Shown: positions 8,884-63,910 of the stretch, piece after piece
Numbering within the stretch: the first letter of the stretch is position 1
How the letters are laid out: every line of letters starts with the position of its first letter
NCBI GenBank assembly: GCA_963677925.2
Contig: CAXXYH010000004.1
Span: 2,272,001-2,336,000 of the forward strand
Origin: Spirochaetia bacterium
GTDB lineage: Bacteria; Spirochaetota; Spirochaetia; UBA9216
Reading direction: 5' to 3'
DNA length: 64,000 nt
Translations under genes and position numbers: made by a program
Notes under the pieces: generated by a model
Database searches by the model: none
What the model was told of the DNA's origin: nothing
Seen by the model: only the letters and a program-made list of their open reading frames with translations

Positions 8884-8910
8884 TAAGCTCCGGCTGAAAA
8901 AAACCGAGAA
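8884..8910 (+). promoter_or_regulatory. Putative sigma28 (FliA) promoter of the flgB operon
   Basis: TAAG-N15-ACCGAGAA versus consensus TAAA-N15-GCCGATAA, ending 32 nt before the flgB ATG. Confidence 0.6.
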
Positions 8911-32223: not shown

Positions 32224-32931
32224 ATGATGTTTGGAGAAAATGCTTCGGTAAAAAGAAATTTAATTATCACTTTTTCCATTTTCGGTTTTGTTCTTTCTAT
32301 TATAACAGGACTGATTGGAAGGGTCTTTTTTGGACCTATGATTGGACGAGCCTTTCTTTTTGCTTTAGTATTCGGCGGAATCGGCTTTCTTGTAATTAAA
32401 ATAGCCGATATCTTTCTTCCCGAACTTTTTCGGCTCGATGATGAAACCGATGATGAAGAACAGGATGAAGATACGGAAGAAACTGATGAAGAATCAGATT
32501 CAGAAAGCGCTGTAGATATAACTGTCGAGGATAATGATAATCCGGATTATATATACAGTCCGGATTCAGGTGAAGCTGAGGCTTCGCTTGAGCCTGAAGA
32601 ACAAACCGGTGAAGATGCAGGAGATGATGTAGCTGAACTGGAGGACGCCGAAGACGGAGATGCGGTTGCTTCAAAAGAAGCTGCGCCCTCAAAAGACGCA
32701 GTTCCGGCTGCTGAGGTCTCCGGTTCAGGAAAGGGTAAATCGAGTTTACCCGATATAGAAACTTTTTCAGATGCTTTTGAGCAGGTGACTGAGACTGAAA
32801 CCGGTGACAACGGATTAAGCAGTATTGACGGCACCGGCTCAGGACAGGCTGAAATACTTGGAAGCCTTCATGACACCGATGAAATGGTTAAGGCTGTCAA
32901 GTCAGTATTAAAAAAGGACCAGGAAGGATAG
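32224..32931 (+). CDS. Hypothetical membrane protein (2 TM + acidic low-complexity tail)
   Basis: Fills the flhG-fliA gap; hydrophobic N-terminus, D/E-rich region. Confidence 0.85.
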   Translation: MMFGENASVKRNLIITFSIFGFVLSIITGLIGRVFFGPMIGRAFLFALVFGGIGFLVIKIADIFLPELFRLDDETDDEEQDEDTEETDEESDSESAVDITVEDNDNPDYIYSPDSGEAEASLEPEEQTGEDAGDDVAELEDAEDGDAVASKEAAPSKDAVPAAEVSGSGKGKSSLPDIETFSDAFEQVTETETGDNGLSSIDGTGSGQAEILGSLHDTDEMVKAVKSVLKKDQEG

Positions 32932-32934
32932 TAA

Positions 32935-33723
32935 ATGGATGCAAAACTTCTAAAGAACAAGAGCGAGGAAGAACTCTGGACTCTTTACAAGAAAAAAAGA
33001 GATCCTATTATCAGGGAACTCTTTGTAAAGCAGTATGCCCCCCTTGTGAAGTATGTAGCCGGAAAGGTTGCGGTAGGTATGCCGCATAATATTGAATTTG
33101 ATGATCTGGTTCAGTATGGTGTATTCGGCCTTTTTGATGCGATAGACAAATTCGACCCTGCAAAACATGTAAAATTTAAAACATATGCCGTTACCAGGAT
33201 CAGGGGAGCAATATTTGATGAACTCCGATCCATTGACTGGGTTCCCAGATCAGTCAGGCAGAAATCAAGAGAAGTTGAGGATGCCGTACATCGCCTTGAA
33301 TCATCACTTGGCAGGGCGGTTTCAGACAGTGAAATTGCAAATGAAATGGGTATGGATCTGCAGGAATATCAGAAGACAATACTTAAAATCAGCGGCACCT
33401 CCATTATGTCTTTAAATGATGTCTGGTACACTGGTGAAGATAACGACAAGGTTTCTATTGTCGACAGCATTGAATCTCCACAGGGCCTTAATCCCGATAT
33501 AATTGTAGAAAAAGATGAAATAAAACGTGTAATAATTGAAGCAATTAACGAACTGCCTGAAAAAGAGAAAAAAGTTCTTGTTCTTTACTATTATGAAGAC
33601 TTAACTTTAAAAGAGATAGGCAAAGTTCTGGAGGTAACTGAATCCAGAGTTTCGCAGCTTCACACTAAGGCGATTATGCGGCTTAGAGCCAAGCTTACTA
33701 ACCTTAAAAAAGGAATTATGTAG
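32935..33723 (+). CDS. fliA: RNA polymerase sigma factor FliA/WhiG (sigma28)
   Basis: [59 protein letters not shown]. Confidence 0.96.
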
Positions 33724-33726
33724 ATT

Positions 33727-35673
33727 ATGGTTCAATTGTCGGAATTAAGAGAATTTATGCGTAAGCAGGCTGAATCGGACCGGGCAAGAAAAACCGTCCA
33801 GGTCAGCGGTCCGACAATTGAAGAGGCGCTTGAGCAGGCCTGTATTGAACTGGCTCTTCCCTTAAAAAAGATAGAATATGAAGTTCTTGAGAGTCCCTCA
33901 GGCGGTATCCTGGGGTACGGAAAAAAGAACTGCCTATTAATAGCCTATGAAATAGCGGCACAGAAGTCTGATGATTTTGATGAAGACGGTTTTGATCTCG
34001 ATTTTGATTCAGGTTTTTCGAGTTCCGAAGTTCCGAAAGACAGAGACGGCGAAATTATTGTAAAACTCAGACAGGAGGGAGTATTTATAAAGGTTTCCCC
34101 GCCTGTCGGAAAAGGAAGTCCTGCAACAGAACGTGATGCCGCGATGAAGATAAAAAGCAGGGGTATTACCGATTATGATCAGCATATGATGGTAAGCGCT
34201 GTTAAGCAGGCGGATGGTGAGCAGGTTCGAATAGGCGATTATGCTTATAACCCGATGAATGATTCAATAATTTCCGTGAATATTATCGATCTCGAGATGA
34301 AGGCTAATATTGTTATTAAAGAGCCCGGTCCTGGCGGTGCGGATGTTAACACAGAAAGCATCATAGGCCTTTTAAAAGCCAATGGAATAATCCATGGAAT
34401 TGATGAAGAAGAGATTGGGCGTATTGAAGATCATCCTGTATTTGATACGCCTCTGCTGGTTGCAGAAGGTTCGAAGCCTGTTAACGGTAATGATGCTCGG
34501 ATAATTTATAACTTTGACAGTCAGAATCTTCAGGTTTCACTGAAAGAGCGGCAGGGGAAGGTTGATTTCAAGGAAATGAACAGAATCCAGAATGTTGTTG
34601 AAGGACAGATTCTGGCAAGAAAGGTTCCTGCGGAAGAAGGCAAACCAGGAAGAACCGTAACCGGGAAATTGCTTCCAGCTAAATCCGGAAATGATATAAG
34701 TTTTAACATAGGTAAAAATGTAAAACTTTCAGATGATAAGCAGACAGCGATAGCAGAAATAAACGGACAGGTTATTATTATGGGTGATAAGCTCACAGTT
34801 GAACCTGTCTACCTTGTTCAGGGCGATGTTAATCTTAAATCAGGCGGAAATATAATCTTTCTGGGATCCGTTATAGTTAAAGGCAGCGTAGAAGACGGTT
34901 TTAAGGTTAAGGCTTCTGGAAATATTGAAGTTATGGGTAATGTAGGAAAGTCTGAGATTGATGCAGAAGGTGAAGTTATTGTTCATCAGGGTATCAACGG
35001 AAAGACCGAAGGTCAGGTCCGGGCCGGAAAAACTGTATGGTCGAAGTTTATTGAGAACGCAAATGTTGAATCCGGAGACCTCGTAGTAGCGACTGATGGA
35101 ATTATAAATTCGAATGTTGTTTCAAACCGTATGATTGTATGTATGGGTAAGCGTGCCACTATAGTTGGAGGAAGACTCCGTGCTACAGAGGAGATACATG
35201 CTAAAACGCTCGGTTCCGCATCAGGATCAGAAACTATTCTTGAAGTAGGCTGGGATCCGAAAAGCAAGGAAAAACTGGTTAATTTAGAAAAGAATATGGA
35301 GGATCTGAATACTCAGATTGATGATATTGATAGAAACATCCTGACGCTTGAAAACTTCAAAAAGAAAAAGAAAAAACTTCCTGAAGATAAGGAAGAATAT
35401 CTGGCAGAGCTGAAACAGCAGAAGCAGGATGTTTATGAAGAAACTCTCGAAGTAAAAGAAGAAATAGACGGTATCAAGGAATATCTTGCTTCTCTTAAAT
35501 ATGTTGGAAAAATATCAGCTGCTTCAAAGGTATTCCCCGGTGTAAGGGTAGTTATCAAGGATGCTCATATGAAGGTTCGAAATGATTATAACAGTGTAAC
35601 TTTCATTAATGAAGAAGGTGATGTTCATACCGTAAAATATGAGGCTCCGGAAGAAGATTTTTCAAGGAAGTAG
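33727..35673 (+). CDS. FapA/DUF342 family protein with N-terminal Jag_N-like domain
   Basis: GPTIEEALEQAC...IEYEVLE (Jag_N-like), VDFKEMNRIQNV, GDVNLKSGGNIIF beta-helix. Confidence 0.85.
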   Translation: MVQLSELREFMRKQAESDRARKTVQVSGPTIEEALEQACIELALPLKKIEYEVLESPSGGILGYGKKNCLLIAYEIAAQKSDDFDEDGFDLDFDSGFSSSEVPKDRDGEIIVKLRQEGVFIKVSPPVGKGSPATERDAAMKIKSRGITDYDQHMMVSAVKQADGEQVRIGDYAYNPMNDSIISVNIIDLEMKANIVIKEPGPGGADVNTESIIGLLKANGIIHGIDEEEIGRIEDHPVFDTPLLVAEGSKPVNGNDARIIYNFDSQNLQVSLKERQGKVDFKEMNRIQNVVEGQILARKVPAEEGKPGRTVTGKLLPAKSGNDISFNIGKNVKLSDDKQTAIAEINGQVIIMGDKLTVEPVYLVQGDVNLKSGGNIIFLGSVIVKGSVEDGFKVKASGNIEVMGNVGKSEIDAEGEVIVHQGINGKTEGQVRAGKTVWSKFIENANVESGDLVVATDGIINSNVVSNRMIVCMGKRATIVGGRLRATEEIHAKTLGSASGSETILEVGWDPKSKEKLVNLEKNMEDLNTQIDDIDRNILTLENFKKKKKKLPEDKEEYLAELKQQKQDVYEETLEVKEEIDGIKEYLASLKYVGKISAASKVFPGVRVVIKDAHMKVRNDYNSVTFINEEGDVHTVKYEAPEEDFSRK

Positions 35674-36539: not shown

Positions 36540-38360
36540 ATGAAAGATAACCGACTACTAAAGACATTTATCAGCGATACAAGCGTGCATATAAATAAGA
36601 TTAATGATCTTCTTATTGCGATGGAGAATAATAGTTCTGCTCCAGAAGCTGTAAATGAACTTTTCAGGTATGTTCACTCAATCAAATCAGAGGCTGCTTA
36701 TCTCGGTATAGATGATATTTCAGAGACTGCACATGATCTTGAGAATATCCTTGAAACAGTAAGAAGTTCATCATCTGGCAGAATAGAGGAAAAGGATCTC
36801 ATTCTGTTCTGCTACAAGGCCGTAGATAGAATCTCAGAGCAGTTGAAACAGGTTAAAGTTTCAGCTTCCGGCAACTTAAACGATGTTAACAGTAATGAAG
36901 AAAAAAAATATACAGATTTTGAAAAACTTCTGCTCAGGGAAGCTGAAGATCGTGATGAGAAATTGTATGAAGTATGTTTCAGTATTGCTGAAGAAGAGTC
37001 AATGAAATATGCAAGGGCATATCTGGCTCTTAGCAATCTTGAAATGAAATATAATGTCATTAAAACCATTCCTGAACTCGATGAAAATGAAGAGCACTTT
37101 CCTGAAAAAATTACAGTAGTACTTTCATCCGGCTCTGATGAGCAGGAAATTATCAGGGATTTAAATATTGATCAAATCAGTGATTTAAGTATTAAGAGAC
37201 TGAGTTTTTCCGATGAGTACGATGCCAGATTAATAACCGAAGCAGCTTCCGATTTAAGTAAAAACAAGGATAATATTTATAATGTTGATGCTTCAGAGAT
37301 AGATGAAATCAACGATTATCTGGTCGAGATTCGACGCAGAATATCGGGGCTTTCCGGATCATTCGGAGACTCTGCTGAACTGAACAGTATGGAAAATGAA
37401 TTAAAGGGATTAGAATCAATTTCCAGCGGAATAGCCTCGCTTATGGACCGCCTTAAAATGGTTCAGTTTGCTGATCATTTTGCCTCTTACCGGAGAATGG
37501 TTCGCGACCTGGCCGATAAATCCGGCAAAAAGATAGAGCTTTTCATAGAAGGAGATCTAAAAATTTCAAGGGATTTTGCTGAATACCTTAAAGAGCCGAT
37601 AATTCAGATTCTTAAAAATGCGATAGTACACGGAATTGAAGCTCCGGAAATACGTAGCAGTAACGGGAAATCTCCAACAGGTAAAATTACTCTCGCTGTG
37701 AGAAAAACTTCTGAGGCTACAGTGATAACAGTCAGTGATGACGGTGCCGGAATTGATGATAATATATACAGCAGTAATGGAATAGGCCGAAGTGAGCATA
37801 CTGAGGTTCTGAAAATTATTTCTCAACCTGGATTCAGTTCACTTTCCGAGAGTAATAAACTCGGCGGTAGAGGGGTAGGTCTTGACCTTGTTGTACATGA
37901 GATTGAAAAAAAGAAGGGCCGGCTGGAACTTGTTAACAATCCCGGCCAGGGATGTATTTTCAGGATGGTTTTCAGTGACTCAAAAAATGAGACTAAATTT
38001 CTGGTTTTGAAGTATCGTGAGAATAACTACGCTGTTGAGATGAAGTCCGGGATTGAAGCTGAAACATATAATCAGGCTGCAGTCTCCAAAAATGGAATAA
38101 TTTTTGAGATAGACGGTATTGGACTGTACTGTCCTGATGGACGTGTTTCAGATCCTGACAATCAGACTTCGGACTGTAATACAATGATTTATATAAAGAA
38201 TCCAAGCGGTGAGGGCTATGTTGTTTTTGAAGAAGCCCTTTTTGAAGTAAAATACGACAAAAACAGGCTTTTAAAGACGGAACCCGCTGGAAATAACTCC
38301 AGCAGGGTTAATGTTGACAGTCAGCCTGCCGATTTTCTTCTTCTTGAAATGAAATTTTAG
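36540..38360 (+). CDS. Divergent CheA-like histidine kinase (Hpt + P2-like + HATPase_c)
   Basis: LFRYVHSIKS phospho-His motif, N-box KNAIVHGIE, G1 DDGAGID, F-box PGFS, G2 GRGVGLDLV; C-terminal CheW-like domain not recognisable. Confidence 0.8.
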   Translation: MKDNRLLKTFISDTSVHINKINDLLIAMENNSSAPEAVNELFRYVHSIKSEAAYLGIDDISETAHDLENILETVRSSSSGRIEEKDLILFCYKAVDRISEQLKQVKVSASGNLNDVNSNEEKKYTDFEKLLLREAEDRDEKLYEVCFSIAEEESMKYARAYLALSNLEMKYNVIKTIPELDENEEHFPEKITVVLSSGSDEQEIIRDLNIDQISDLSIKRLSFSDEYDARLITEAASDLSKNKDNIYNVDASEIDEINDYLVEIRRRISGLSGSFGDSAELNSMENELKGLESISSGIASLMDRLKMVQFADHFASYRRMVRDLADKSGKKIELFIEGDLKISRDFAEYLKEPIIQILKNAIVHGIEAPEIRSSNGKSPTGKITLAVRKTSEATVITVSDDGAGIDDNIYSSNGIGRSEHTEVLKIISQPGFSSLSESNKLGGRGVGLDLVVHEIEKKKGRLELVNNPGQGCIFRMVFSDSKNETKFLVLKYRENNYAVEMKSGIEAETYNQAAVSKNGIIFEIDGIGLYCPDGRVSDPDNQTSDCNTMIYIKNPSGEGYVVFEEALFEVKYDKNRLLKTEPAGNNSSRVNVDSQPADFLLLEMKF

Positions 38361-38372
38361 TTCAAATAATTC

Positions 38373-38399
38373 TAAAGTTCAAAGCAGGTTTACCGATAT
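38373..38399 (+). promoter_or_regulatory. Near-consensus sigma28 promoter with no downstream ORF
   Basis: TAAAGTTC-N11-ACCGATAT versus extended consensus TAAAGTTT-N11-GCCGATAA. Confidence 0.7.
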
Positions 38400-38405
38400 T
38401 AATCT

Positions 38406-38472
38406 TAGGGTTGAACACCTTATTTGATAATTAACGGTATGCACATAACGTCCAGGCATACCGTTTTTTTTT
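38406..38472 (+). ncRNA. Candidate sigma28-dependent small RNA (~65 nt)
   Basis: Bounded by a sigma28 promoter and an intrinsic terminator; 5' hairpin UAGGGU/ACCUUA; no SD-led ORF. Confidence 0.5.
38433..38472 (+). terminator. Rho-independent terminator
   Basis: Stem AACGGTATGC / GCATACCGTT, 13-nt loop, T9 tract. Confidence 0.85.
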
Positions 38473-38490
38473 GCTTCAGTCTCCCTCAAA

Positions 38491-39501
38491 CTAGACAGGT
38501 AGAAGACAATTATCTGGTTTCTTAAAGAAATCTTTATTTTCTTCAAGAATTTCATTAATAGTTTCCTTAAGTCCGACCACAGCGGAGGCTCCAAGCGGAA
38601 GTAAAGCCCCGCCTCTGCATAGGTTCAGGATCTGGCCTTCTACGATGCTTTTCATTTCATCTTTTGGAATTGCTCCAAGTTTGAGTGAAGCCATATCCAT
38701 ACCGCCGGTTAATACCAGACGATCTCCGTATTTCTTTATAATACCTTCAATATCATTGATAGTTTGTGCAGATGTCCAGTGTTCTATACCGGCCTCGATC
38801 ATTGATGGAATTAGATTTTCAATTTTACCGCAACTGTGAAACCTTAGAAAAATATTTTTCTCCTTGCCAAACTCGGTCAGCCTTTTAATGTGGGGTGCAA
38901 GTAGACTGTTCCAGACTTCGGTGCTGAAAAACTGATTTTCCTGATGTCCCCAGTCATCGTGCAGCTCTATCTGATCAACAGGGTAGTATTCAAGGATTTT
39001 TTCCATAACTCTAATCTTGTGATCAACTACAGCGCTGAAAAAGTCTGAGGAGGCTTCAGGTTCAATCAGCAGCGCCATACAGGCTTCAGACATCCCCATA
39101 AGTGCATGCATTCTTTCAAATGGACCGTTTAAAAGAGTAATATTTGCAAGTTTTTCAGGTACAAAGACATCCTTGTCTCTTTCTGCTGCGGCAGCCCAGT
39201 CTATAGCTTCTAAGTCAGGGAATTTTACCTGTTCTTTCCATTTCTTTATATCAGTCAAAATCGGCGGATACTCATGGCTTACTGTGGCTGCGCGTACGTG
39301 AGGCTGAAAAACCCAGTGAACACCGAACCAGTCAAAACCGGTTCCTCCCAGGGCCTGCTCGATCGAACCATCGCCTGGAGCCCTCTCAGCTATTTCGGGC
39401 GGAATATAGTTGACTTCATCCTGCCTTGCATTAGGAATCCACTCGGGAACCTGATGAGTCAACACTCTAATATAGTTCTCCTTAGGGGTTAAAGTTGACA
39501 T
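38491..39501 (-). CDS. Uroporphyrinogen decarboxylase / MtaA-CmuA methyltransferase-like family protein
   Basis: TPKENY N-terminus, DWFGVHW, GPFERMHALMG, DDWG, FHSCG; SD AGGAGAG. Confidence 0.8.
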   Translation of the reverse strand: MSTLTPKENYIRVLTHQVPEWIPNARQDEVNYIPPEIAERAPGDGSIEQALGGTGFDWFGVHWVFQPHVRAATVSHEYPPILTDIKKWKEQVKFPDLEAIDWAAAAERDKDVFVPEKLANITLLNGPFERMHALMGMSEACMALLIEPEASSDFFSAVVDHKIRVMEKILEYYPVDQIELHDDWGHQENQFFSTEVWNSLLAPHIKRLTEFGKEKNIFLRFHSCGKIENLIPSMIEAGIEHWTSAQTINDIEGIIKKYGDRLVLTGGMDMASLKLGAIPKDEMKSIVEGQILNLCRGGALLPLGASAVVGLKETINEILEENKDFFKKPDNCLLPV

Positions 39502-39551: not shown

Positions 39552-39582
39552 ATGCTAAACCTTACCCCCATGGTAAGGTCAA
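39552..39582 (-). promoter_or_regulatory. MerR-family (CueR-like) operator/promoter
   Basis: Minus strand TTGACC-N19-TAGCAT with dyad ACCTTACC-N5-GGTAAGGT (39559-39579). Confidence 0.75.
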
Positions 39583-41405
39583 ACTATTTTTTCAGAAAGT
39601 CTCAACAGTGCCTGTCCGGCAAGAATTCGATGATAGGCGGCTGCCTCATTGATGCCGAAATATAGTTTTTTAGAATTGGAAAGATAATCGCTGCCGGTTG
39701 TTTCGAGAATATCATTAAGAACCGGCTGCAGGATAAACCCTGCAAGTTCCTTGGCGGGAATTGAAGATATGCTGCGGTCAATTGATTCAAGTTTTTTTAA
39801 ATACTCCGAAAGTTCAGGTGTATCTTTGCTTATCAGTTTCATTAGCTGAATGGCTTCACCAGATAGGGTTTCAAGATTTTTACATTCATGAATGAGATTT
39901 TCAAGCATTGAAATAATACCTTTCAGCTCATTCCGGCCTGATTTAAATCTATCACTTTTAACTTTGATCTTAATATTTTCAATGGTTTTTCTCTGTTCCG
40001 GTGTCTGAAGAAGAGTATCTGATGATAGAAATTGCATTCCGTCTATCTTTATACCATATGACGAAAGATTATAAGTTGCAGTCGAACTATCATTTTTTAA
40101 CTGGTTTTCAAACCACCACTTGTATATTATAAGCCGCTTGTCTGTTAAGGTTTCAGTACCCGAATTATTGTCTGTTTTGAAGGATGAAGTGCTGTTAAGA
40201 TAGGCTGCAGTAAGCGAAGATGCCGGTGTAAGTCTTGTAGAGGACATTGCAATCAGTCTTGAAGAAAGGCTGTTTTTATAATGAGTTTTATTTCCTGGAT
40301 ATCCAAGATCAAGTCCAGCCGCATAGATTTCACGGCAGCCGAGTCTTCTGGCCAAATCCCAGGCACTCGTTGCTACAGATCCTCCGGCACCCAGAACTCC
40401 ATTAATTCTGACATGTTCTTCAAACAGACTTCCAAGCGGAAAAACAGATTTGCAGAAGTATACAGGAAGAGAGCAGTTTCTGAAAATTCCAGGATGGGTT
40501 GAGCTTTCAGATACAAGAATACTGCTGCCGTCAAACAATCTGTCTGACAGCAGGTTGTCAAGATGCCTGGAGTTCAGATACTGCGGATCAACAACTACTA
40601 TGAAATCAGGTGCAATTCGGGCATCTTTGAAAGCTCTTACGGCAGTATCTACACTGATTATTACAGCTCTTTTTTTCATTTCGGGCATCAGGGGCATTAA
40701 CGAATCAAGCGAAGGTCCTGCTGCAGCTACAATTCCCGGAATGCCGGGGAAACGGCCGAACCACTCACTGATATCGCCTGCATGAATCAGGGTTGGAATG
40801 TTGCGGAAAAGATTTCTGACCCAGGATTTACCGAAGCGGTTTATAGTATTCCGGTTTGTTTCCTTCTTAGCCACATATTCATTTATATTTTCTTCCAGAC
40901 TGCTGAAATATTCTTCATTTATTCCTGTCAGCTGACGCAATTTGAAGGTGTATACCGGAAAAACATCAATCTGTTTCAATATTCCCTGTATTGACGAGGG
41001 TACGGTATCAAGAAGAAAACCGGTTCGCGGTGATGATATAACCTCGGTGAAATCTCTTGCTTCTAGTGCTTTTAAGAATATTCCGGGCTCAGGTTCTGCA
41101 ATTAATATTTGAAGTTCCGGATAGTTTTCAAGAAGTGCTTCTATATGATAGCCCAGTCCGAAGCCGAAGACTACACAGATACCTGAGCCGCTTATTCCGC
41201 AGTTTCCTGCAAGCCTCGATGCTTCGGCAGACGGAGCTCTTGAGGAGTGCAGCCATACTTTATTCAGTTTTCCGGACACGGTTCCGTTTACACTTACAAC
41301 TATTTCAAGATCTTCAGATGGTTTGTAGCGGGACAATATTTCAGTTTCGAATCCCTGATATTTCTCTTTCAGTGCATCAAGGTTTTTCCCGGCAAATACC
41401 GACAT
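39579..41405 (-). CDS. Motility-associated factor (Maf/DUF115) putative flagellin glycosyltransferase
   Basis: FGFGLGYH, AAAGPSLD, PDFIVVVDPQ, GGSVATSAWDLA, GLDLGY; ATG 41405 preferred to TTG 41414 on SD spacing. Confidence 0.85.
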   Translation of the reverse strand: MSVFAGKNLDALKEKYQGFETEILSRYKPSEDLEIVVSVNGTVSGKLNKVWLHSSRAPSAEASRLAGNCGISGSGICVVFGFGLGYHIEALLENYPELQILIAEPEPGIFLKALEARDFTEVISSPRTGFLLDTVPSSIQGILKQIDVFPVYTFKLRQLTGINEEYFSSLEENINEYVAKKETNRNTINRFGKSWVRNLFRNIPTLIHAGDISEWFGRFPGIPGIVAAAGPSLDSLMPLMPEMKKRAVIISVDTAVRAFKDARIAPDFIVVVDPQYLNSRHLDNLLSDRLFDGSSILVSESSTHPGIFRNCSLPVYFCKSVFPLGSLFEEHVRINGVLGAGGSVATSAWDLARRLGCREIYAAGLDLGYPGNKTHYKNSLSSRLIAMSSTRLTPASSLTAAYLNSTSSFKTDNNSGTETLTDKRLIIYKWWFENQLKNDSSTATYNLSSYGIKIDGMQFLSSDTLLQTPEQRKTIENIKIKVKSDRFKSGRNELKGIISMLENLIHECKNLETLSGEAIQLMKLISKDTPELSEYLKKLESIDRSISSIPAKELAGFILQPVLNDILETTGSDYLSNSKKLYFGINEAAAYHRILAGQALLRLSEKIV

Positions 41406-41406
41406 A

Positions 41407-43266
41407 TTATTCAAGCTCCAGCAGTATTTCCATTCCCGGTGTGAGTTCAGTTCCCGGTTCCGGAGTCTGTTTCACAACCCAGCCTTCGCCCGAGAGCTTA
41501 AGGCTGAATCTCTTGTCGTTAAGAAGAGGAAGCAGCTGTCTCTTAGTCATTCCGGTGAAATCGGGAATCTTTTCTTCGACTGTAACTGTTTTGTCTTTTG
41601 GTACAGATATATGCCCTGTATGCTCCAGTACTATATCAGTTGTTTTGGGAATTCCGAGATAGGGTACTGTTTCATCAATAATTTTCTTTGCTACCGGGGC
41701 AGCAATAGTTCCGCCGTAGTAGGATACGCCCTTCGGATTCTGAATAACAACATAAATAATCAATCTGGGATCATCCGTTGGAAAAATAGCCAGACAGGAT
41801 GCTATATAATTTTCATCAGAGTACGAACCTGTTTTAGGGTCTATGACCTGGCTTGTTCCGGTCTTGGCAGAAATTCTCAGGCCTTCTGTACGGAGTCTGT
41901 GTGCTGTCCCGCCGTCCTCGGTTGCTGTTTCCATCATCAGCAGCATTCCGCGGGCTGTTTCAGGACTGAATACTCTTCGAACCGGCTCACGTTCCACCTC
42001 TTCAATAACCTTGCCGTCAGGTGAGAGTATTCGATCAACAATATGAGGGCGCAGGAGAACACCGTCATTTGCAAATACTGTTGCTGCTGAGGCTACCTGT
42101 ACTGCCGAAACGAGAATCTCCTGTCCGAACGAAATTGTAGGTTTTGATCTTGCGGACCACTTATCTGGACTTCTTATAAGTCCTGAAGATTCTCCAGGCA
42201 TCGGCAGCTGTGTCTGCCCGCCGAATCCGAGGGCCGTCAGCATCTGGTAGAAATCGCTGTTGCTGACGGTATCTGACGCATAGGCTGCACCTGCGTTGCA
42301 GGAATATTTAATTATTCCGGCAGGCGTAAGCGAGCCGTGGGTTCCAAGGCAGCGAATGGGTTCAGGTATGGCTTCGTTTTCATAGGTGCCGTCACAGTAG
42401 AAGTGTGAGGAAGGGCTAATGCCTCTGAGCTCCATAAATGATGAAATGCTGAAAATTTTCATAATTGAACCCGGCTCATAAGCGGAAGAGACAGTCCTGT
42501 TCCGTCTTTCGGCCTCAGTAAAATCTCCGAATGTATTGGGATCAAAGTCAGGCATTGTTGCCGAAGCCAGAATATCTCCGTTTCTTGCATCCATTACGAC
42601 GATCATTACTGCATCGGCTTTATGGACTTCCATTGTTTCAGCCGCATATTTCTCAGCAAAGTATTCAATATTTGTATCAATTGTAAGGAAAAGCTGATTT
42701 CCATATACATCATTTTCGTCTCTGAGCTCAGGCTTGGGTGACAGGATGTCGTTCATCGTATACTCAATGCCGTCCAGACCTATATTATCTGTACCCGCAT
42801 ATCCGATTATATGGGAAGCCAGCCGTTTTTCAGGATAGTTCCTTCCGTATTCCTTCCTGAGGTAAACACCTTCGAGTTTGCCTGTCTCTTTGAGCTTGCG
42901 AATCTCTTCACTTTCTGTCGGGGTGATTTTTCGTTTTATCCACATGCTGTTGTGCCTGGTGGTAAAACTGATCAGGAGATTATTATAATCAAGTTCGAGT
43001 ATCGTCGAAAGATACTGAGCTGTTTCTTCCGGATTGCTTACATACGGAATCCAGGTTTCAACAGAATCAAGCTGATTCTGAATAGCCAGAATTCTTCCGT
43101 TTCGATCAAGAATGGGGCCTCTTTCGACTACGGGTTTAGATGTAATTTGTGCGGTATCCTGATGATTCAGAACCATCAGTGAAAAGTATTTCCAGACTAT
43201 TATCAGTAATAATATTGCTGTTACTATGCTGAAAAAAAGAAATCTCCGGCCTATTTTCTTATCCAT
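41407..43266 (-). CDS. Class B penicillin-binding protein (FtsI-like) with C-terminal PASTA domain
   Basis: RGPILDRNG, LTIDTNI, SxxK (GSIMK), SxN (SCN), KTG (AKTGT), IPDFTGMT PASTA. Confidence 0.93.
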   Translation of the reverse strand: MDKKIGRRFLFFSIVTAILLLIIVWKYFSLMVLNHQDTAQITSKPVVERGPILDRNGRILAIQNQLDSVETWIPYVSNPEETAQYLSTILELDYNNLLISFTTRHNSMWIKRKITPTESEEIRKLKETGKLEGVYLRKEYGRNYPEKRLASHIIGYAGTDNIGLDGIEYTMNDILSPKPELRDENDVYGNQLFLTIDTNIEYFAEKYAAETMEVHKADAVMIVVMDARNGDILASATMPDFDPNTFGDFTEAERRNRTVSSAYEPGSIMKIFSISSFMELRGISPSSHFYCDGTYENEAIPEPIRCLGTHGSLTPAGIIKYSCNAGAAYASDTVSNSDFYQMLTALGFGGQTQLPMPGESSGLIRSPDKWSARSKPTISFGQEILVSAVQVASAATVFANDGVLLRPHIVDRILSPDGKVIEEVEREPVRRVFSPETARGMLLMMETATEDGGTAHRLRTEGLRISAKTGTSQVIDPKTGSYSDENYIASCLAIFPTDDPRLIIYVVIQNPKGVSYYGGTIAAPVAKKIIDETVPYLGIPKTTDIVLEHTGHISVPKDKTVTVEEKIPDFTGMTKRQLLPLLNDKRFSLKLSGEGWVVKQTPEPGTELTPGMEILLELE

Positions 43267-48049: not shown

Positions 48050-50779
48050 CTACTGGTTAATCCCGCAGCAGTGTTTATATTTCTTTCCGCTGCCGCAGGG
48101 ACATGGATCGTTTCGACCCACTTTAGGAGTGCTTCTTTTTACCTGAGTTCCTCGAGGTGTTGCCTCCGCAGCTTCACCGCCTTGGGGTGAGCCTCCGCCT
48201 GCAAAAGCTCCAAGTTCAGCATGCTTTGTCTGGATATTCAGATCAGGCTTTCTTCTTTCATCACGATCATACCGCTTGATTCTTACCTTTATTGCCTTTC
48301 TGGCAATATTCAATTTTATATCCATGATCAGTTTGTCAAAGATATCAAAACCTTCAAGCTTGTATTCCAGAAGCGGATTTTTCTGTGCATAGGATCGAAG
48401 ATAAACTGCCTCACGAAGTGCTTCAAGATTTTCAAGGTGTTCCTGCCATTTGCTGTCTATACTTTTCAGGTATTCAAAACGGATAAACTGGTTGAAATTC
48501 TCTTTGCCGAGTTTTTCTTCTTTTTCCCTGATATCCTCGGTAATATAGTTCATGATTCTGCTTTGAAGCTCGGCCTCGGTGAGTGCCGCAAAATTTTCAT
48601 CACCGGGTTCATACATAAAGTTCAGCATTAAATCTTCATAAAACTGAGTAACAGCGCCCGGATTGTCTTTACCGCCGTTTCCACGGAAGGCATCAACTAA
48701 ATCCTCGGTTATTTCTTCAGCTGTGTCCAGAATCCTCCTGCTGAGATCTGCATTCTGGGTTATATCATCGCGCTGAGAGTATATGAACTTTCTCTGCTCA
48801 TTAAGAACATCGTCAAAGTCAAGAAGGTGCTTTCTGATCTCGAAGTTGCGGTCCTCAACCCTTGTCTGTGCTCGTTCAATAGCTCTGTTTATTAGAGGAT
48901 GGTAAAGCGGTTCACCGTCCTGCATGCCTGAACGGGCCATTATTGAACGCAGGCTGTCCCGGGCAAAGAGTCTCATCAGATCATCATCCAGACTAAGGAA
49001 GAATCTCGATTCACCTGGGTCTCCCTGACGTCCGGAACGTCCTCTGAGCTGGTTGTCTATACGCCTTGATTCATGACGTTCCGTACCAAGAATGTAAAGG
49101 CCGCCAAGATCTTTTACCTTTTGGTAGTCCTTCTTCCATTTTTCGTATTCTGTTTCATATGCTTTCTGGAAAACTTCTTCAGATGCATCAGTTCCTGCCT
49201 TTTTTCTGGCTCTGAATTCGGGGTTTCCGCCCAGTTTGATATCTGTACCACGGCCGGCCATGTTAGTCGCAATAGTTACGCTTCCTTCTGCACCGGCTTC
49301 GGCAATAATCATTGCCTCACGGGAATGGTTTTTAGCATTGAGTACTTCATGCCTCACACCGCGCTTCATAAGGAGTTTTGAAATCTTCTCTGATTTTTCG
49401 ATAGAAACAGTTCCTACAAGGATCGGCTGACCCTTTTCATTAACCCTGGCAATTTCATCACAGATTGCGTTGTTCTTTATTTCTTCGTTGAAATAGATAA
49501 CATCGTCATCATCATTTCTTGCAACAGGCCTGTTGGTAGGGATAACAACTACATCGAGTCCGTAGATACTGTTGAATTCCTTTGCTTCGGTATCTGCAGT
49601 ACCTGTCATTCCGGAAATCTTGTCATACATCCTGAAGAAGTTCTGAAAGGTTATTGTTGCAAGGGTACGGTTTCTTTTAGCAACCTTGATGTGCTCTTTG
49701 GCCTCAATTGCCTGATGAAGACCGTCGGAGTATCTTCGCCCATGAAGGATACGGCCGGTAAACTCATCGACAATCTGAACCTGACCGGCTTCAACGACAT
49801 AATCTACATCCTTTTTATAAAGGGTATGTGCTCTAACAGCCTGTGTTATATAGTGTATAAGTTCAAAATTTTCATCATTGTACAGAGAATCCTTGATAAC
49901 ACCGGCTTTCAGGAAAATCTTTTCAACATTGTTCAGCCCCTCTTCTGTGAAGGTGACTTTCTTCGATTTTTCCTCAAGCTTGTAATCTCCTACCGGCTCT
50001 TCAGGATATTCACCTGTTTCCGGATCTATATCGCATTCTTTAAGCTGATTAACGAAGGCGTTTACCTGGTTGAATTTCCCGGTATCATCATCAGCGGCAC
50101 CGGAAATAATAAGAGGAGTTCTAGCCTCATCAATAAGGATTGAGTCTATTTCGTCAATAATGCAGTAGTTATGCACCTTCTGAACACGTCCGTCAGAAGT
50201 CCACTTCATGTTATCACGAAGATAATCAAAGCCCAGTTCATTATTTGTTCCGTAAGTGATATCACACTCGTATGCCTTCTTTCTGGCTTCGGGGTCCATA
50301 TCGGAAAGGACAGCCCCCACTTTAACACCCAGAAGTTCATATATCGGTGTCATCCACAATGCATCTCGTCCAGCCAGGTAATCATTGACGGTAACGATAT
50401 GCACTCCTCTTCCTGTAAGGCTGTTGAGGTAGGCTGCTGCGACACTGGAGAGCGTTTTACCTTCACCGGTTTTCATCTCCATTATCTTTCCCTGATGAAG
50501 AACAATTCCGCCAAGCAGCTGTACATCATAGGGCCGTTCACCAAGGGCTCTTCTCGAGGCTTCTCTGGCAAGTGCATAGGCTTCAGGCAATATGGAATCA
50601 AGGCTTTCGCCGTTTTTTATTCTTGATTTAAAGGTTTCGGTCTGGGCGGGAAAGTCTTCGGACGGAATGCTTACAGCCCAGCTCTCTTTTTCATTAATTT
50701 TGTGCAGTATGGGCAGCAGTTCCTTCAGGTCGCGTTCATGCTTCGAGCCCACAATGGTAGTAAATATTTTTTTGAGCAT
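48050..50779 (-). CDS. secA: Preprotein translocase ATPase SecA
   Basis: [73 protein letters not shown]. Confidence 0.99.
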
Positions 50780-55988: not shown

Positions 55989-57674
55989 TCAATTTTCTCC
56001 GTATGCATTCAGATTGAGCGGCAGATTTCCCTCAGGCTGAATTGTCCCTGTAAGCGCCGCAAAGCCGGCATCAATAGATTCACGGCTTATTCCATAAACT
56101 GCGATAGCCTTATCCACCCAGGGCAGTTCCCGGAGATACACAGGTGTAAGAACTGAAAAAACTGCAATCTCAGCCTTGCTGCTTTCAAGTTCCTTAAGTA
56201 CCTGAAAACTGTTGGGGTTGGCAAGACAGAAAATTACCGTATCATAATTGTCTGCTTTTTTCTTGATAGAGTTTCTTATTGAGGCTTCGGAAGTATAAAA
56301 AGGTGAATAATCGAAGCGGAAGGTATCAGCATCTGGATAAGCTTTTTTTCCCGAGGTAAAAAACCTGTCCAGCTGCCCGGCAAGTAGAATCTTTCTATTC
56401 TCTCCGTCTACAGTACTGTTCTTGTATATTTCTGTTACTGCACGGTATGCCTGGTCAGTAAAAAAATCCTTACCCTCATGATTAGGTATGTTATCAAGGA
56501 CATGATCGGGATCCGGAAATAGCGGTATAGAGCCCTCATCCTTAAGGTAGGCTAATTTTGTCGTGAGAATACGCTCTGCCGATGCCCTGACGGTATTGCG
56601 GAAATCCTCACTTCTCTTCATTTCTTTAATAAGGTAATCCCATACCTTCTGATGTATCTCGGGGGTACGTGATACAAGAATGATATCATTACCGGCCTCA
56701 ATTGCTGTTTTACAGATTTCAGGAGTATTCATTGAAAGCAGCTGCACCCCGTTCATCATAAGGTCATCTGTTACAACCAGGCCTTCAAAATTAAGTCTTT
56801 CCCGCAGAATATCATTAAGAAACAGGGGGGAAAGGCTTGCAGGTATTTCAGAACCGGTAATTTCGGGAAAAGCCAGATGCCCGGACATTATTGCAGGGAT
56901 ATTTTCTCTGACGAGGTAGCGGTAGGGAAGAAGATCCCTTTCCCACATGGTTTCAAAATTGATATTTATTATAGGAAGCGCTCCGTGCGAATCCTTGTCG
57001 GCATCACCATGACCGGGATAGTGTTTGGCTGTGCATATGACGCCTGCTGAATCCATTCCTTTAAAATAGGCAGTAGAAAGTACTGCGGTCAGAAGTGCAT
57101 CCTGGCTGAATGCTCTTGGTCCTATGACATGGGCTTCCGCATTGGAATAAACATCAACGGTAGGGGCAAAATTCATATTTATACCAAGCTCACGAAGCTC
57201 CATACCTATGTAATAACCTGTTTTAAAAGCATCATCCGGAATTCTGCTGGCGCCCAGAGCCATATTTCCTGGAGTTTCTGAGGTTTCAGCCCTCACGTGC
57301 CGAACCCATCCTCCTTCCTGATCCGTGACAATAAAAAGCGGAATTTGAAGTTCTGTTTTACGGGCTGTCTGCTGCATCTCCCTTATACTTCCGGCAAGAG
57401 TTTCAAGATCTGCAACATTCCATCCGAAAATCTTTACTCCGCCTATCTCACGGTTTTCAATCCAGTCAAGGATGTCGGAAGAGGGAGTGCCTCCCATATA
57501 CCCCAGAAGCATCATTTGTCCAAGCAGCTGTTCGTCAGTCATTGATTCAATAAGACGGCTTTGAAGTTCATCCTTATCTGTGTTGGTCCAGAAATCTATT
57601 GCTGAAACAGGAGTGTAAGCTGAAAACAGGGTTAGAAGTAAAAGTAGATAAAAAGTACATTTTTGCTGTAACAT
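55989..57674 (-). CDS. GH3 beta-N-acetylglucosaminidase (NagZ-like), exported
   Basis: Signal peptide, DQEGG, NFAP, KHYPGHGDADKDSH (NagZ DxH motif), VTDDL. Confidence 0.88.
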   Translation of the reverse strand: MLQQKCTFYLLLLLTLFSAYTPVSAIDFWTNTDKDELQSRLIESMTDEQLLGQMMLLGYMGGTPSSDILDWIENREIGGVKIFGWNVADLETLAGSIREMQQTARKTELQIPLFIVTDQEGGWVRHVRAETSETPGNMALGASRIPDDAFKTGYYIGMELRELGINMNFAPTVDVYSNAEAHVIGPRAFSQDALLTAVLSTAYFKGMDSAGVICTAKHYPGHGDADKDSHGALPIININFETMWERDLLPYRYLVRENIPAIMSGHLAFPEITGSEIPASLSPLFLNDILRERLNFEGLVVTDDLMMNGVQLLSMNTPEICKTAIEAGNDIILVSRTPEIHQKVWDYLIKEMKRSEDFRNTVRASAERILTTKLAYLKDEGSIPLFPDPDHVLDNIPNHEGKDFFTDQAYRAVTEIYKNSTVDGENRKILLAGQLDRFFTSGKKAYPDADTFRFDYSPFYTSEASIRNSIKKKADNYDTVIFCLANPNSFQVLKELESSKAEIAVFSVLTPVYLRELPWVDKAIAVYGISRESIDAGFAALTGTIQPEGNLPLNLNAYGEN

Positions 57675-63362: not shown

Positions 63363-63389
63363 TAAACTGCCTTTTTTAAATTCCGATGA
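63363..63389 (+). promoter_or_regulatory. Putative sigma28 promoter of flgN-flgK
   Basis: TAAA-N15-TCCGATGA. Confidence 0.65.
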
Positions 63390-63409
63390 TTAAAAAGAGG
63401 TATTATCTG

Positions 63410-63910
63410 ATGACTATAAACATACTGAGCGAAAAACTTGCCGATCTCATGGAGAAGGAAACGGAACTTATTGAAACAATAAGCTCTGAGGAACAGCTTC
63501 TCCAGAAAACCCTCACTGAAAAGAACTGGTCTGAAATGGAAAAAGTTATCTGCAGACTTACACCTCTGTCAGCTAAGGTTGAGAAAACTGAATCTGATCG
63601 TGAAAAAGTTTTCAGTACACTCATGGATGCCTGCGGTAAAAAGGAGTCTGAAGGCTTTTATGCTGTCGCTATGTATATGGAAGGCGATGCAAAAGAACGC
63701 TGTATGGCATCATACAGAAAACTGAAGGTATCTCTTTTGAAAGTTCAGAGCATAACCGGAAGTATAGATCAATATGTTAAGAACGTTGGAAATACAACCC
63801 AGAAAATTTTAAGTGAAATCTTTCCGTACAGGAAAGGAAGTATATATTCCAGTCGCGGAGGTACCAGGCCGGTGCACAGCGACCCGATGGTGTTTAACAG
63901 GCACTTCTAA
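63410..63910 (+). CDS. flgN: Flagellar export chaperone FlgN family protein
   Basis: Helical protein ending GSIYSSRG, directly upstream of flgK; SD AAGAGG before ATG 63410. Confidence 0.75.
   Translation: MTINILSEKLADLMEKETELIETISSEEQLLQKTLTEKNWSEMEKVICRLTPLSAKVEKTESDREKVFSTLMDACGKKESEGFYAVAMYMEGDAKERCMASYRKLKVSLLKVQSITGSIDQYVKNVGNTTQKILSEIFPYRKGSIYSSRGGTRPVHSDPMVFNRHF

Follow-up and report, generated by a model that had tools for sequence, protein, structure and literature searches.

A match to the sigma-28 promoter lies directly behind the last gene of the flagellar superoperon of this spirochete, and as a sequence match it is real and unlikely to be due to chance. Our leading, still tentative, interpretation is that this motif drives an RNA of ~66 nt that is nested in the 3'UTR of the operon and shares the operon terminator. 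FliA (sigma-28) would recognize a promoter 12 nt past the stop codon of the last gene, and transcription from about 38406–38408 would proceed to the operon's own intrinsic terminator, in the way known from 3'UTR sRNAs transcribed from a promoter of their own. As fliA is itself a gene of the operon, synthesis of this RNA would have to await active sigma-28, making it a late-class output. Its most likely mode of action would be base pairing, by the unpaired linker, by the terminator loop, which at 13 nt is unusually large, or by both, and the effect would be an adjustment of flagellar or related mRNAs. The motif and how rarely it occurs, the fold, the lack of an ORF and the conservation in one relative are direct observations; that the promoter is active and FliA-dependent, that the RNA starts at this position and that it has a regulatory function or a target are inferred. 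The features are collected in Table 1, with positions counted in the window, that is, the whole stretch of 64 000 nt that was analyzed.

Table 1. Elements of the candidate sRNA locus and the genes around it. L001 is the orthologous locus of the one close relative
Feature	Position	Strand	Details
-35-type element TAAAGTTC	38373..38380	+	Identical in L001
-10-type element ACCGATAT, core CCGATA	38392..38399	+	Identical in L001
Predicted RNA, about 64–67 nt	38406..38472	+	Predicted start 38406–38408, 7–9 nt past the -10 element; end in the T-run
Weak 6-bp 5' hairpin UAGGGU-UGAAC-ACCUUA	38406..38422	+	-4.2 kcal/mol
AT-rich single-stranded linker UUUGAUAAUU	38423..38432	+	9/10 bases A/T
Terminator hairpin	38433..38465	+	10-bp stem, 13-nt loop; -13.5 kcal/mol, z -4.85, 0/200 shuffles
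T9 run	38464..38472	+	T7 then A in L001
fliA/whiG (sigma-28) gene	32935..33723	+	NCBIfam NF004935 WhiG 426.9 bits (cut-off 343), TIGR02479 FliA_WhiG 295 bits, Pfam Sigma70 r2/r3/r4
CheA-like kinase, last operon gene, 606 aa	36540..38360	+	Pfam Hpt, P2, HATPase_c; NCBIfam below cut-offs; homologues
URO-D/MtaA-like (methyltransferase-fold) gene, convergent, last of the minus-strand operon	38491..39501	-	Stop 18 nt from the T-run
Maf/PseD-like flagellin-modification gene, same minus-strand operon as the URO-D/MtaA-like gene	39579..41414	-	

Flagellar superoperon and convergent operon

The window comes from a spirochete. The periplasmic-flagellum collar gene flbB is present, and the only close relative is a Spirochaetia metagenome-assembled genome (MAG). 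On the plus strand, one flagellar superoperon begins with flgB (8943) and continues through flhA, flhF, flhG, a 235-aa gene, fliA/whiG, a FapA-family gene and two small genes to the CheA-like kinase of 606 aa. The cognate sigma factor FliA/WhiG is encoded within the same operon as the candidate promoter, and its match to the WhiG family model is well above the cut-off (Table 1).

The stop codon of the CheA-like gene is TAG at 38358–38360. The label that the earlier note gave to this gene is fair, considering the Hpt, P2 and HATPase_c domains of its product. Neither a dimerization domain (PF02895) nor a CheW-like domain (PF01584) was detected in the protein with Pfam. This reduced architecture is common to the first 24 of the 120 listed homologues, among which P0015 is also without Hpt; where the source names them, these 24 are proteins of Spirochaetales or Spirochaeta MAGs. 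Among the listed homologues, canonical CheA proteins are found only at ~29% identity and below. The FapA-family protein encoded at 33727–35673 (FapA_N and FapA) has a Jag_N domain at its N-terminus. Jag_N is otherwise known from RNA-binding Jag/EloR (KhpB) proteins. The product of the 235-aa gene between flhG and fliA (32224–32931) has no match in Pfam or NCBIfam; by position alone, this gene matches the site reported for flgV adjoining sigma-28 in spirochete superoperons (PMC11607428).

The next gene is convergent, as had been described. This URO-D/MtaA-like gene and the Maf/PseD-like gene form a pair on the minus strand, located downstream of a PBP2-type transpeptidase. The composition of the convergent operon hints at flagellin glycosylation in this spirochete.

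A sigma-28 promoter match after the last gene of the operon

The E. coli sigma-28 consensus is TAAAGTTT-N11-GCCGATAA. The promoter-like motif TAAAGTTC-N11-ACCGATAT at 38373–38399, which starts 12 nt past the CheA-like stop codon, matches this consensus at 13 of 16 positions. The TAAA and CCGATA cores are perfect and lie 15 nt apart, and the spacer has the canonical length of 11 nt. Sites were ranked with an ad hoc weighted score (maximum 25) against the E. coli consensus. On this scale the motif scores 22.5 and ranks first in the window on both strands, ahead of the matches before flgN (20) and flgB (17.5). The earlier note had placed the motif 12 nt after the CheA-like stop and called it the best match in the window, better than those before flgB and flgN, and we find the coordinates and the ranking to be correct.

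A score this good was reached anywhere in only 5 of 200 dinucleotide-shuffled windows, corresponding to an expectation of 0.025 per shuffled window. The simpler pattern TAAA-N14-16-CCGATA gives a similar picture: the window has three occurrences where 0.33 would be expected, and none of 100 shuffles gave as many. The remaining two occurrences are within coding sequence, while the motif at 38373–38399 sits in the ~2.1 kb (3%) of the window that is outside listed ORFs. The same -10 core is found in another spirochete. In Treponema denticola, the sigma-28 promoter of flaB2 was mapped by RLM-RACE and its -10 element is CCGATAA (PMC9481697).

Other sigma-28-like motifs of lower score are scattered over the window. 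The second-best match, TAAAGTGG-N11-TCCGATAT at 50298–50324 on the minus strand, scores 21.5 and is located within secA, on the sense strand and ~470 nt from the start of the gene. This could be an intragenic FliA site or a match by chance; since this runner-up lies inside secA, near-consensus sigma-28 matches evidently do arise by chance. Upstream of flgN, the motif TAAACTGC-N11-TCCGATGA (region 63363–63411) matches the consensus at 11 of 16 positions and is ~22 nt before the likely flgN start. The start that the ORF list gives for the FlgN-family gene (63386) falls inside the -10 element. The ATG at 63411, which follows AAGAGG, is the more likely start of flgN and would give a short leader. 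The weak motif upstream of flgB, TAAGCTCC-N11-ACCGAGAA at 8884–8910, has 10 of 16 matches and lies in a 65-nt gap after hslU. A further motif, TAAAGATT-N11-CCAGATAA at 38510–38536, scores 21 on the minus strand. It falls within the 3'-terminal part of the URO-D-like gene and is directed toward the terminator of the candidate RNA. We treat it as a chance match, as its -10 element CCAGATAA is not kept in L001 (CCTGAGAA). A sigma-70-like match on the minus strand (38382–38354, 9/12) was also set aside, because such matches occur at background frequency (13 found, 11.9 expected).

Predicted RNA and the shared terminator

The predicted RNA folds with -17.8 kcal/mol (z -3.46), and none of 200 shuffled sequences folds as well. 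This signal is due to the terminator hairpin, which by itself is also unmatched in 200 shuffles (Table 1). Its stem is formed by AACGGUAUGC (38433–38442) and GCAUACCGUU (38456–38465), and its loop is ACAUAACGUCCAG (38443–38455). The stem-loop is stable, contains G+C and is directly followed by a T-run to 38472, as is characteristic of an intrinsic (Rho-independent) terminator. The T-run overlaps the stem, so two of its nine T are within it. The hairpin was absent from the terminator scan because that scan accepts only loops of 3–8 nt and the loop here has 13 nt. The AU-rich linker and the 10-bp terminator with U9 are thus as the earlier note described them, apart from the two T inside the stem. 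For the 5' hairpin UAGGGU/ACCUUA, the position and the pairing hold but its stability does not stand out, with 25 of 200 shuffled sequences folding as well as the hairpin alone.

The terminator is 73 nt from the CheA-like stop and is the only one after the last operon gene. Since the operon itself has no other terminator, no sRNA is needed to explain its presence. Read on the minus strand, the same hairpin folds with -19.6 kcal/mol and is located 18 nt past the stop of the convergent gene, suggesting that it may serve both operons. The description of the candidate as a stand-alone sRNA therefore needs to be qualified: it is a short terminator-ended unit, but it is nested in the operon's own 3'UTR and uses the operon's sole terminator.

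RNA families, copies, coding potential and targets

No Rfam 15 family matches the window at gathering thresholds, so the Rfam search that had been proposed for the candidate sRNA assigns it to no known family. A local E-value search gave nine weak matches, all far below gathering; the best of them reaches 18.7 bits against a gathering threshold of 37 and is on the opposite strand. A 32-nt pattern allowing up to three mismatches finds only itself as a copy, and blastn-short of 38361–38475 against the window and L001 finds only itself and the orthologue. There is no conserved ORF in the predicted RNA, in agreement with the proposal that the promoter points not at a gene but at a short unit ending in a terminator.

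Possible targets were searched in the start regions of 60 gene starts drawn from the ORFs of the window. With RNAduplex, the best of these start regions (fliJ) gives -35.5 kcal/mol, a value reached by 27% of 200 shuffled RNAs. The longest perfect complement in any of the 60 regions is 9 nt, which was reached or exceeded in 136 of 300 shuffles. Over the whole window, perfect complements of at least 10 nt amount to four k-mer matches at two sites, about the chance expectation; at 56443 the matches overlap and cover 12 nt antisense to a GH3 gene, and at 32260 there is an AT-rich 10-mer. The 13-nt loop and CACCUUA had been put forward as seed regions, and pairing at chance level across the 60 start regions of the window does not bear this out. 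Nor is the term anti-SD-like appropriate for CACCUUA, which is paired within the predicted hairpin stem and does not have the CCUCC core of the anti-SD sequence. The RNA does not look like a CsrA sponge either, because by inspection it contains no GGA motif.

Conservation in the one close relative

A search of genome contigs with the CheA-like protein matched 99 pattern stretches, of which one was confirmed. It corresponds to a single locus, L001, with 89% protein identity. The next CheA-like homologue in the protein search is only 40% identical and the lineage is sparsely sampled, so no other alignable intergenic DNA is expected. The window and L001 are 90.5% identical at the nucleotide level over a 13.8-kb alignment (12485/13802 positions).

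Between 38361 and 38470 there are four substitutions. One is upstream of the -35 element (38367), one is in the spacer (38386) and two are between the -10 element and the predicted start (38402 and 38404). The 16 positions of the promoter octamers and the 66-nt run 38405–38470 show no change at all. The probability that four random substitutions would all fall within the other 28 of these 110 positions is ~0.004 by post hoc arithmetic. The conservation of the promoter in the orthologous intergenic region, which had been suggested as a point to examine, is thus seen in the one relative aligned. The RNA region has one change in 68 nt. For comparison, 36–39% of fourfold-degenerate sites are changed in the flanking genes (CheA-like 74/208, URO-D-like 50/128), and the 18 nt directly past the terminator have four changes and a gap. 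This difference suggests that the RNA stretch is under constraint. The linker and the 13-nt loop are also identical in L001, though a plain terminator needs neither. With the RNA (38405–38470) identical in this single relative, no stem pair varies that could give covariation. The argument from conservation is weakened by further intergenic regions of this alignment, which likewise show few changes (3/58, 6/77 and 0/44). The 66-nt identical run is tied for the 15th longest in the 13.8-kb alignment.

Alternative explanations

The main rival explanation is an ordinary 3'UTR with an intrinsic terminator, in which the sigma-28-like motif arose by chance or represents a promoter that is unused or has no regulatory role. 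Conservation would then reflect the short distance to L001 together with different demands on the 3'UTR, for instance from mRNA stability or from a hairpin common to both convergent operons. We regard this as a possibility to be taken seriously, though doubtful. In its favor, the hairpin at 73 nt from the stop is the sole terminator past the last gene and is needed by the operon regardless of any sRNA, and the secA motif indicates that a score of 21.5 can be reached by chance. Yet a motif as good as the one at 38373–38399 is expected only rarely in shuffled windows (0.025 per window), and this one adjoins the fliA operon, belongs to the 3% of sequence outside ORFs and has a suitable strand and distance relative to a terminator. 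Other intergenic regions are equally conserved and the identical 66-nt run is unexceptional over the whole alignment, but none of the four substitutions hits a promoter octamer, loop and linker are unchanged without being required by a terminator, and the sequence just beyond the T-run diverges (4/18 and a gap). Another alternative, that the unit encodes a small protein or leader peptide, we consider extremely improbable. A TTG-initiated frame of seven codons (38412–38435) and an ATG frame from 38440 are present. The TTG directly follows AGGG without usable spacing, and the sole ATG frame is in the terminator stem, continues past the terminator and is frame-shifted in L001, and we reject the reading on these grounds.

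It is also conceivable, though we think it unlikely, that the promoter is active and its RNA does not act in trans. The RNA could be a by-product, as many E. coli FliA promoters are reported to yield unstable RNAs without evident function (10.1101/188474). The whole RNA is invariant, however, including the 5' part outside the overlap with the convergent transcript, and this argues against pure noise. In a cis version of the same explanation, the RNA would act on the convergent URO-D-like/Maf transcript, which must cross the same hairpin and to whose predicted 3' end the 3' part of the RNA is fully complementary. Overlap of the two transcripts is likely, because the minus-strand stop is 18 nt from the T-run and the hairpin is followed on that strand by no canonical U-tract (UUAAUUAUCAAAU). 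Sigma-28 activity could in this way alter the processing or stability of a flagellin-modification mRNA, or shield against read-through, and the Maf/PseD-like gene gives the convergent operon a flagellar link. The window contains no signal of a trans target, but this is weak evidence for such a reading because the scans were limited to 60 window start regions.

The preferred interpretation, a late-class FliA-dependent sRNA in the 3'UTR of the operon, agrees in its core with what the earlier note had proposed. The promoter match, the presence of FliA/WhiG in the operon, the terminator-ended unit without an ORF and the conservation in L001 all point to it. Of the rest of that proposal, the seed regions found no support in the scans of the window, the 5' hairpin folds no better than shuffled sequences and the stand-alone character is imprecise.

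Relation to known sigma-28-dependent RNAs

The concept of sigma-28-dependent sRNAs is already established elsewhere. FliA/sigma-28-dependent sRNAs are documented to control flagellar assembly post-transcriptionally in both Enterobacteria and Campylobacter (PMC10578931, PMC11187230). A close parallel in arrangement is E. coli UhpU, an RNA that represents the uhpT 3'UTR, is transcribed from a separate sigma-28 promoter and shares the 3'UTR and terminator of the mRNA, as the candidate would (PMC10578931). The UhpU promoter, however, is inside the coding sequence of uhpT, a non-flagellar host gene, whereas that of the candidate follows the last stop codon of the FliA-encoding operon. The two RNAs are similar neither in sequence nor by Rfam. 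E. coli MotR, FliX and FlgO are, as is proposed for the candidate, late-class sigma-28-dependent sRNAs derived from UTRs of flagellar mRNAs (PMC10578931). The genes whose UTRs they represent are late flagellar genes, with MotR transcribed from the motA promoter. The accessible text of that paper describes none of the three with a promoter between a stop codon and the terminator, as in the candidate, and no sequence similarity to the candidate was detected.

In Campylobacter jejuni, CJnc170 (FlmR) is a 47-nt, unprocessed, FliA-dependent RNA and is short like the candidate, while CJnc230 (FlmE) is located directly downstream of the flagellar structural gene flgE, comparable to the position of the candidate at the end of a flagellar operon (PMC11187230). 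Both tie sRNA output to the flagellar hierarchy. CJnc230 differs in being RpoN-dependent and processed from the flgE transcript, unlike the candidate with its predicted own sigma-28 promoter. The two RNAs belong to another phylum, and no homology to the candidate was detected. UhpU is Hfq-bound with mapped targets (PMC10578931), and expression data and phenotypes are available for CJnc170 and CJnc230 (PMC11187230), while the candidate is a prediction from sequence.

A less favorable comparison is provided by the genome-wide FliA binding sites of E. coli. Most of them are active promoters, and many yield unstable RNAs that were judged non-functional (10.1101/188474). These non-functional promoters share with the candidate a strong sigma-28 motif that does not precede a protein-coding gene. 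They are intragenic and mostly unconserved between species, whereas the candidate lies between genes, precedes a terminator and is kept in the one relative available.

A full-text literature search found no description of a sigma-28-dependent sRNA in spirochetes, in agreement with the earlier note. The predicted sigma-28 targets named in the accessible text of a Leptospira interrogans TSS/sRNA paper and a 2025 review are only flaA1, flaB1, flaB4 and fliS. A bolder version of our interpretation, which we consider unlikely though worth stating, is that the candidate would be the first sigma-28-dependent sRNA of the spirochete phylum, located between the stop codon and the terminator of sigma-28's own operon. 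Completion of the hook-basal body, with release of sigma-28, might then be converted into post-transcriptional feedback on early flagellar genes; alternatively, the complementary 3' end of the RNA might act on the convergent flagellin-modification (Maf) operon. Pairing would possibly involve the conserved 13-nt loop.

The host is uncultured and represented only by assemblies, and its lineage is sparsely sampled, which limits the reach of the finding. If the RNA is validated, it would mean that a third, distant lineage has evolved an sRNA coupled to its late flagellar sigma factor, and it would offer a compact reporter of sigma-28 activity in systems with periplasmic flagella.
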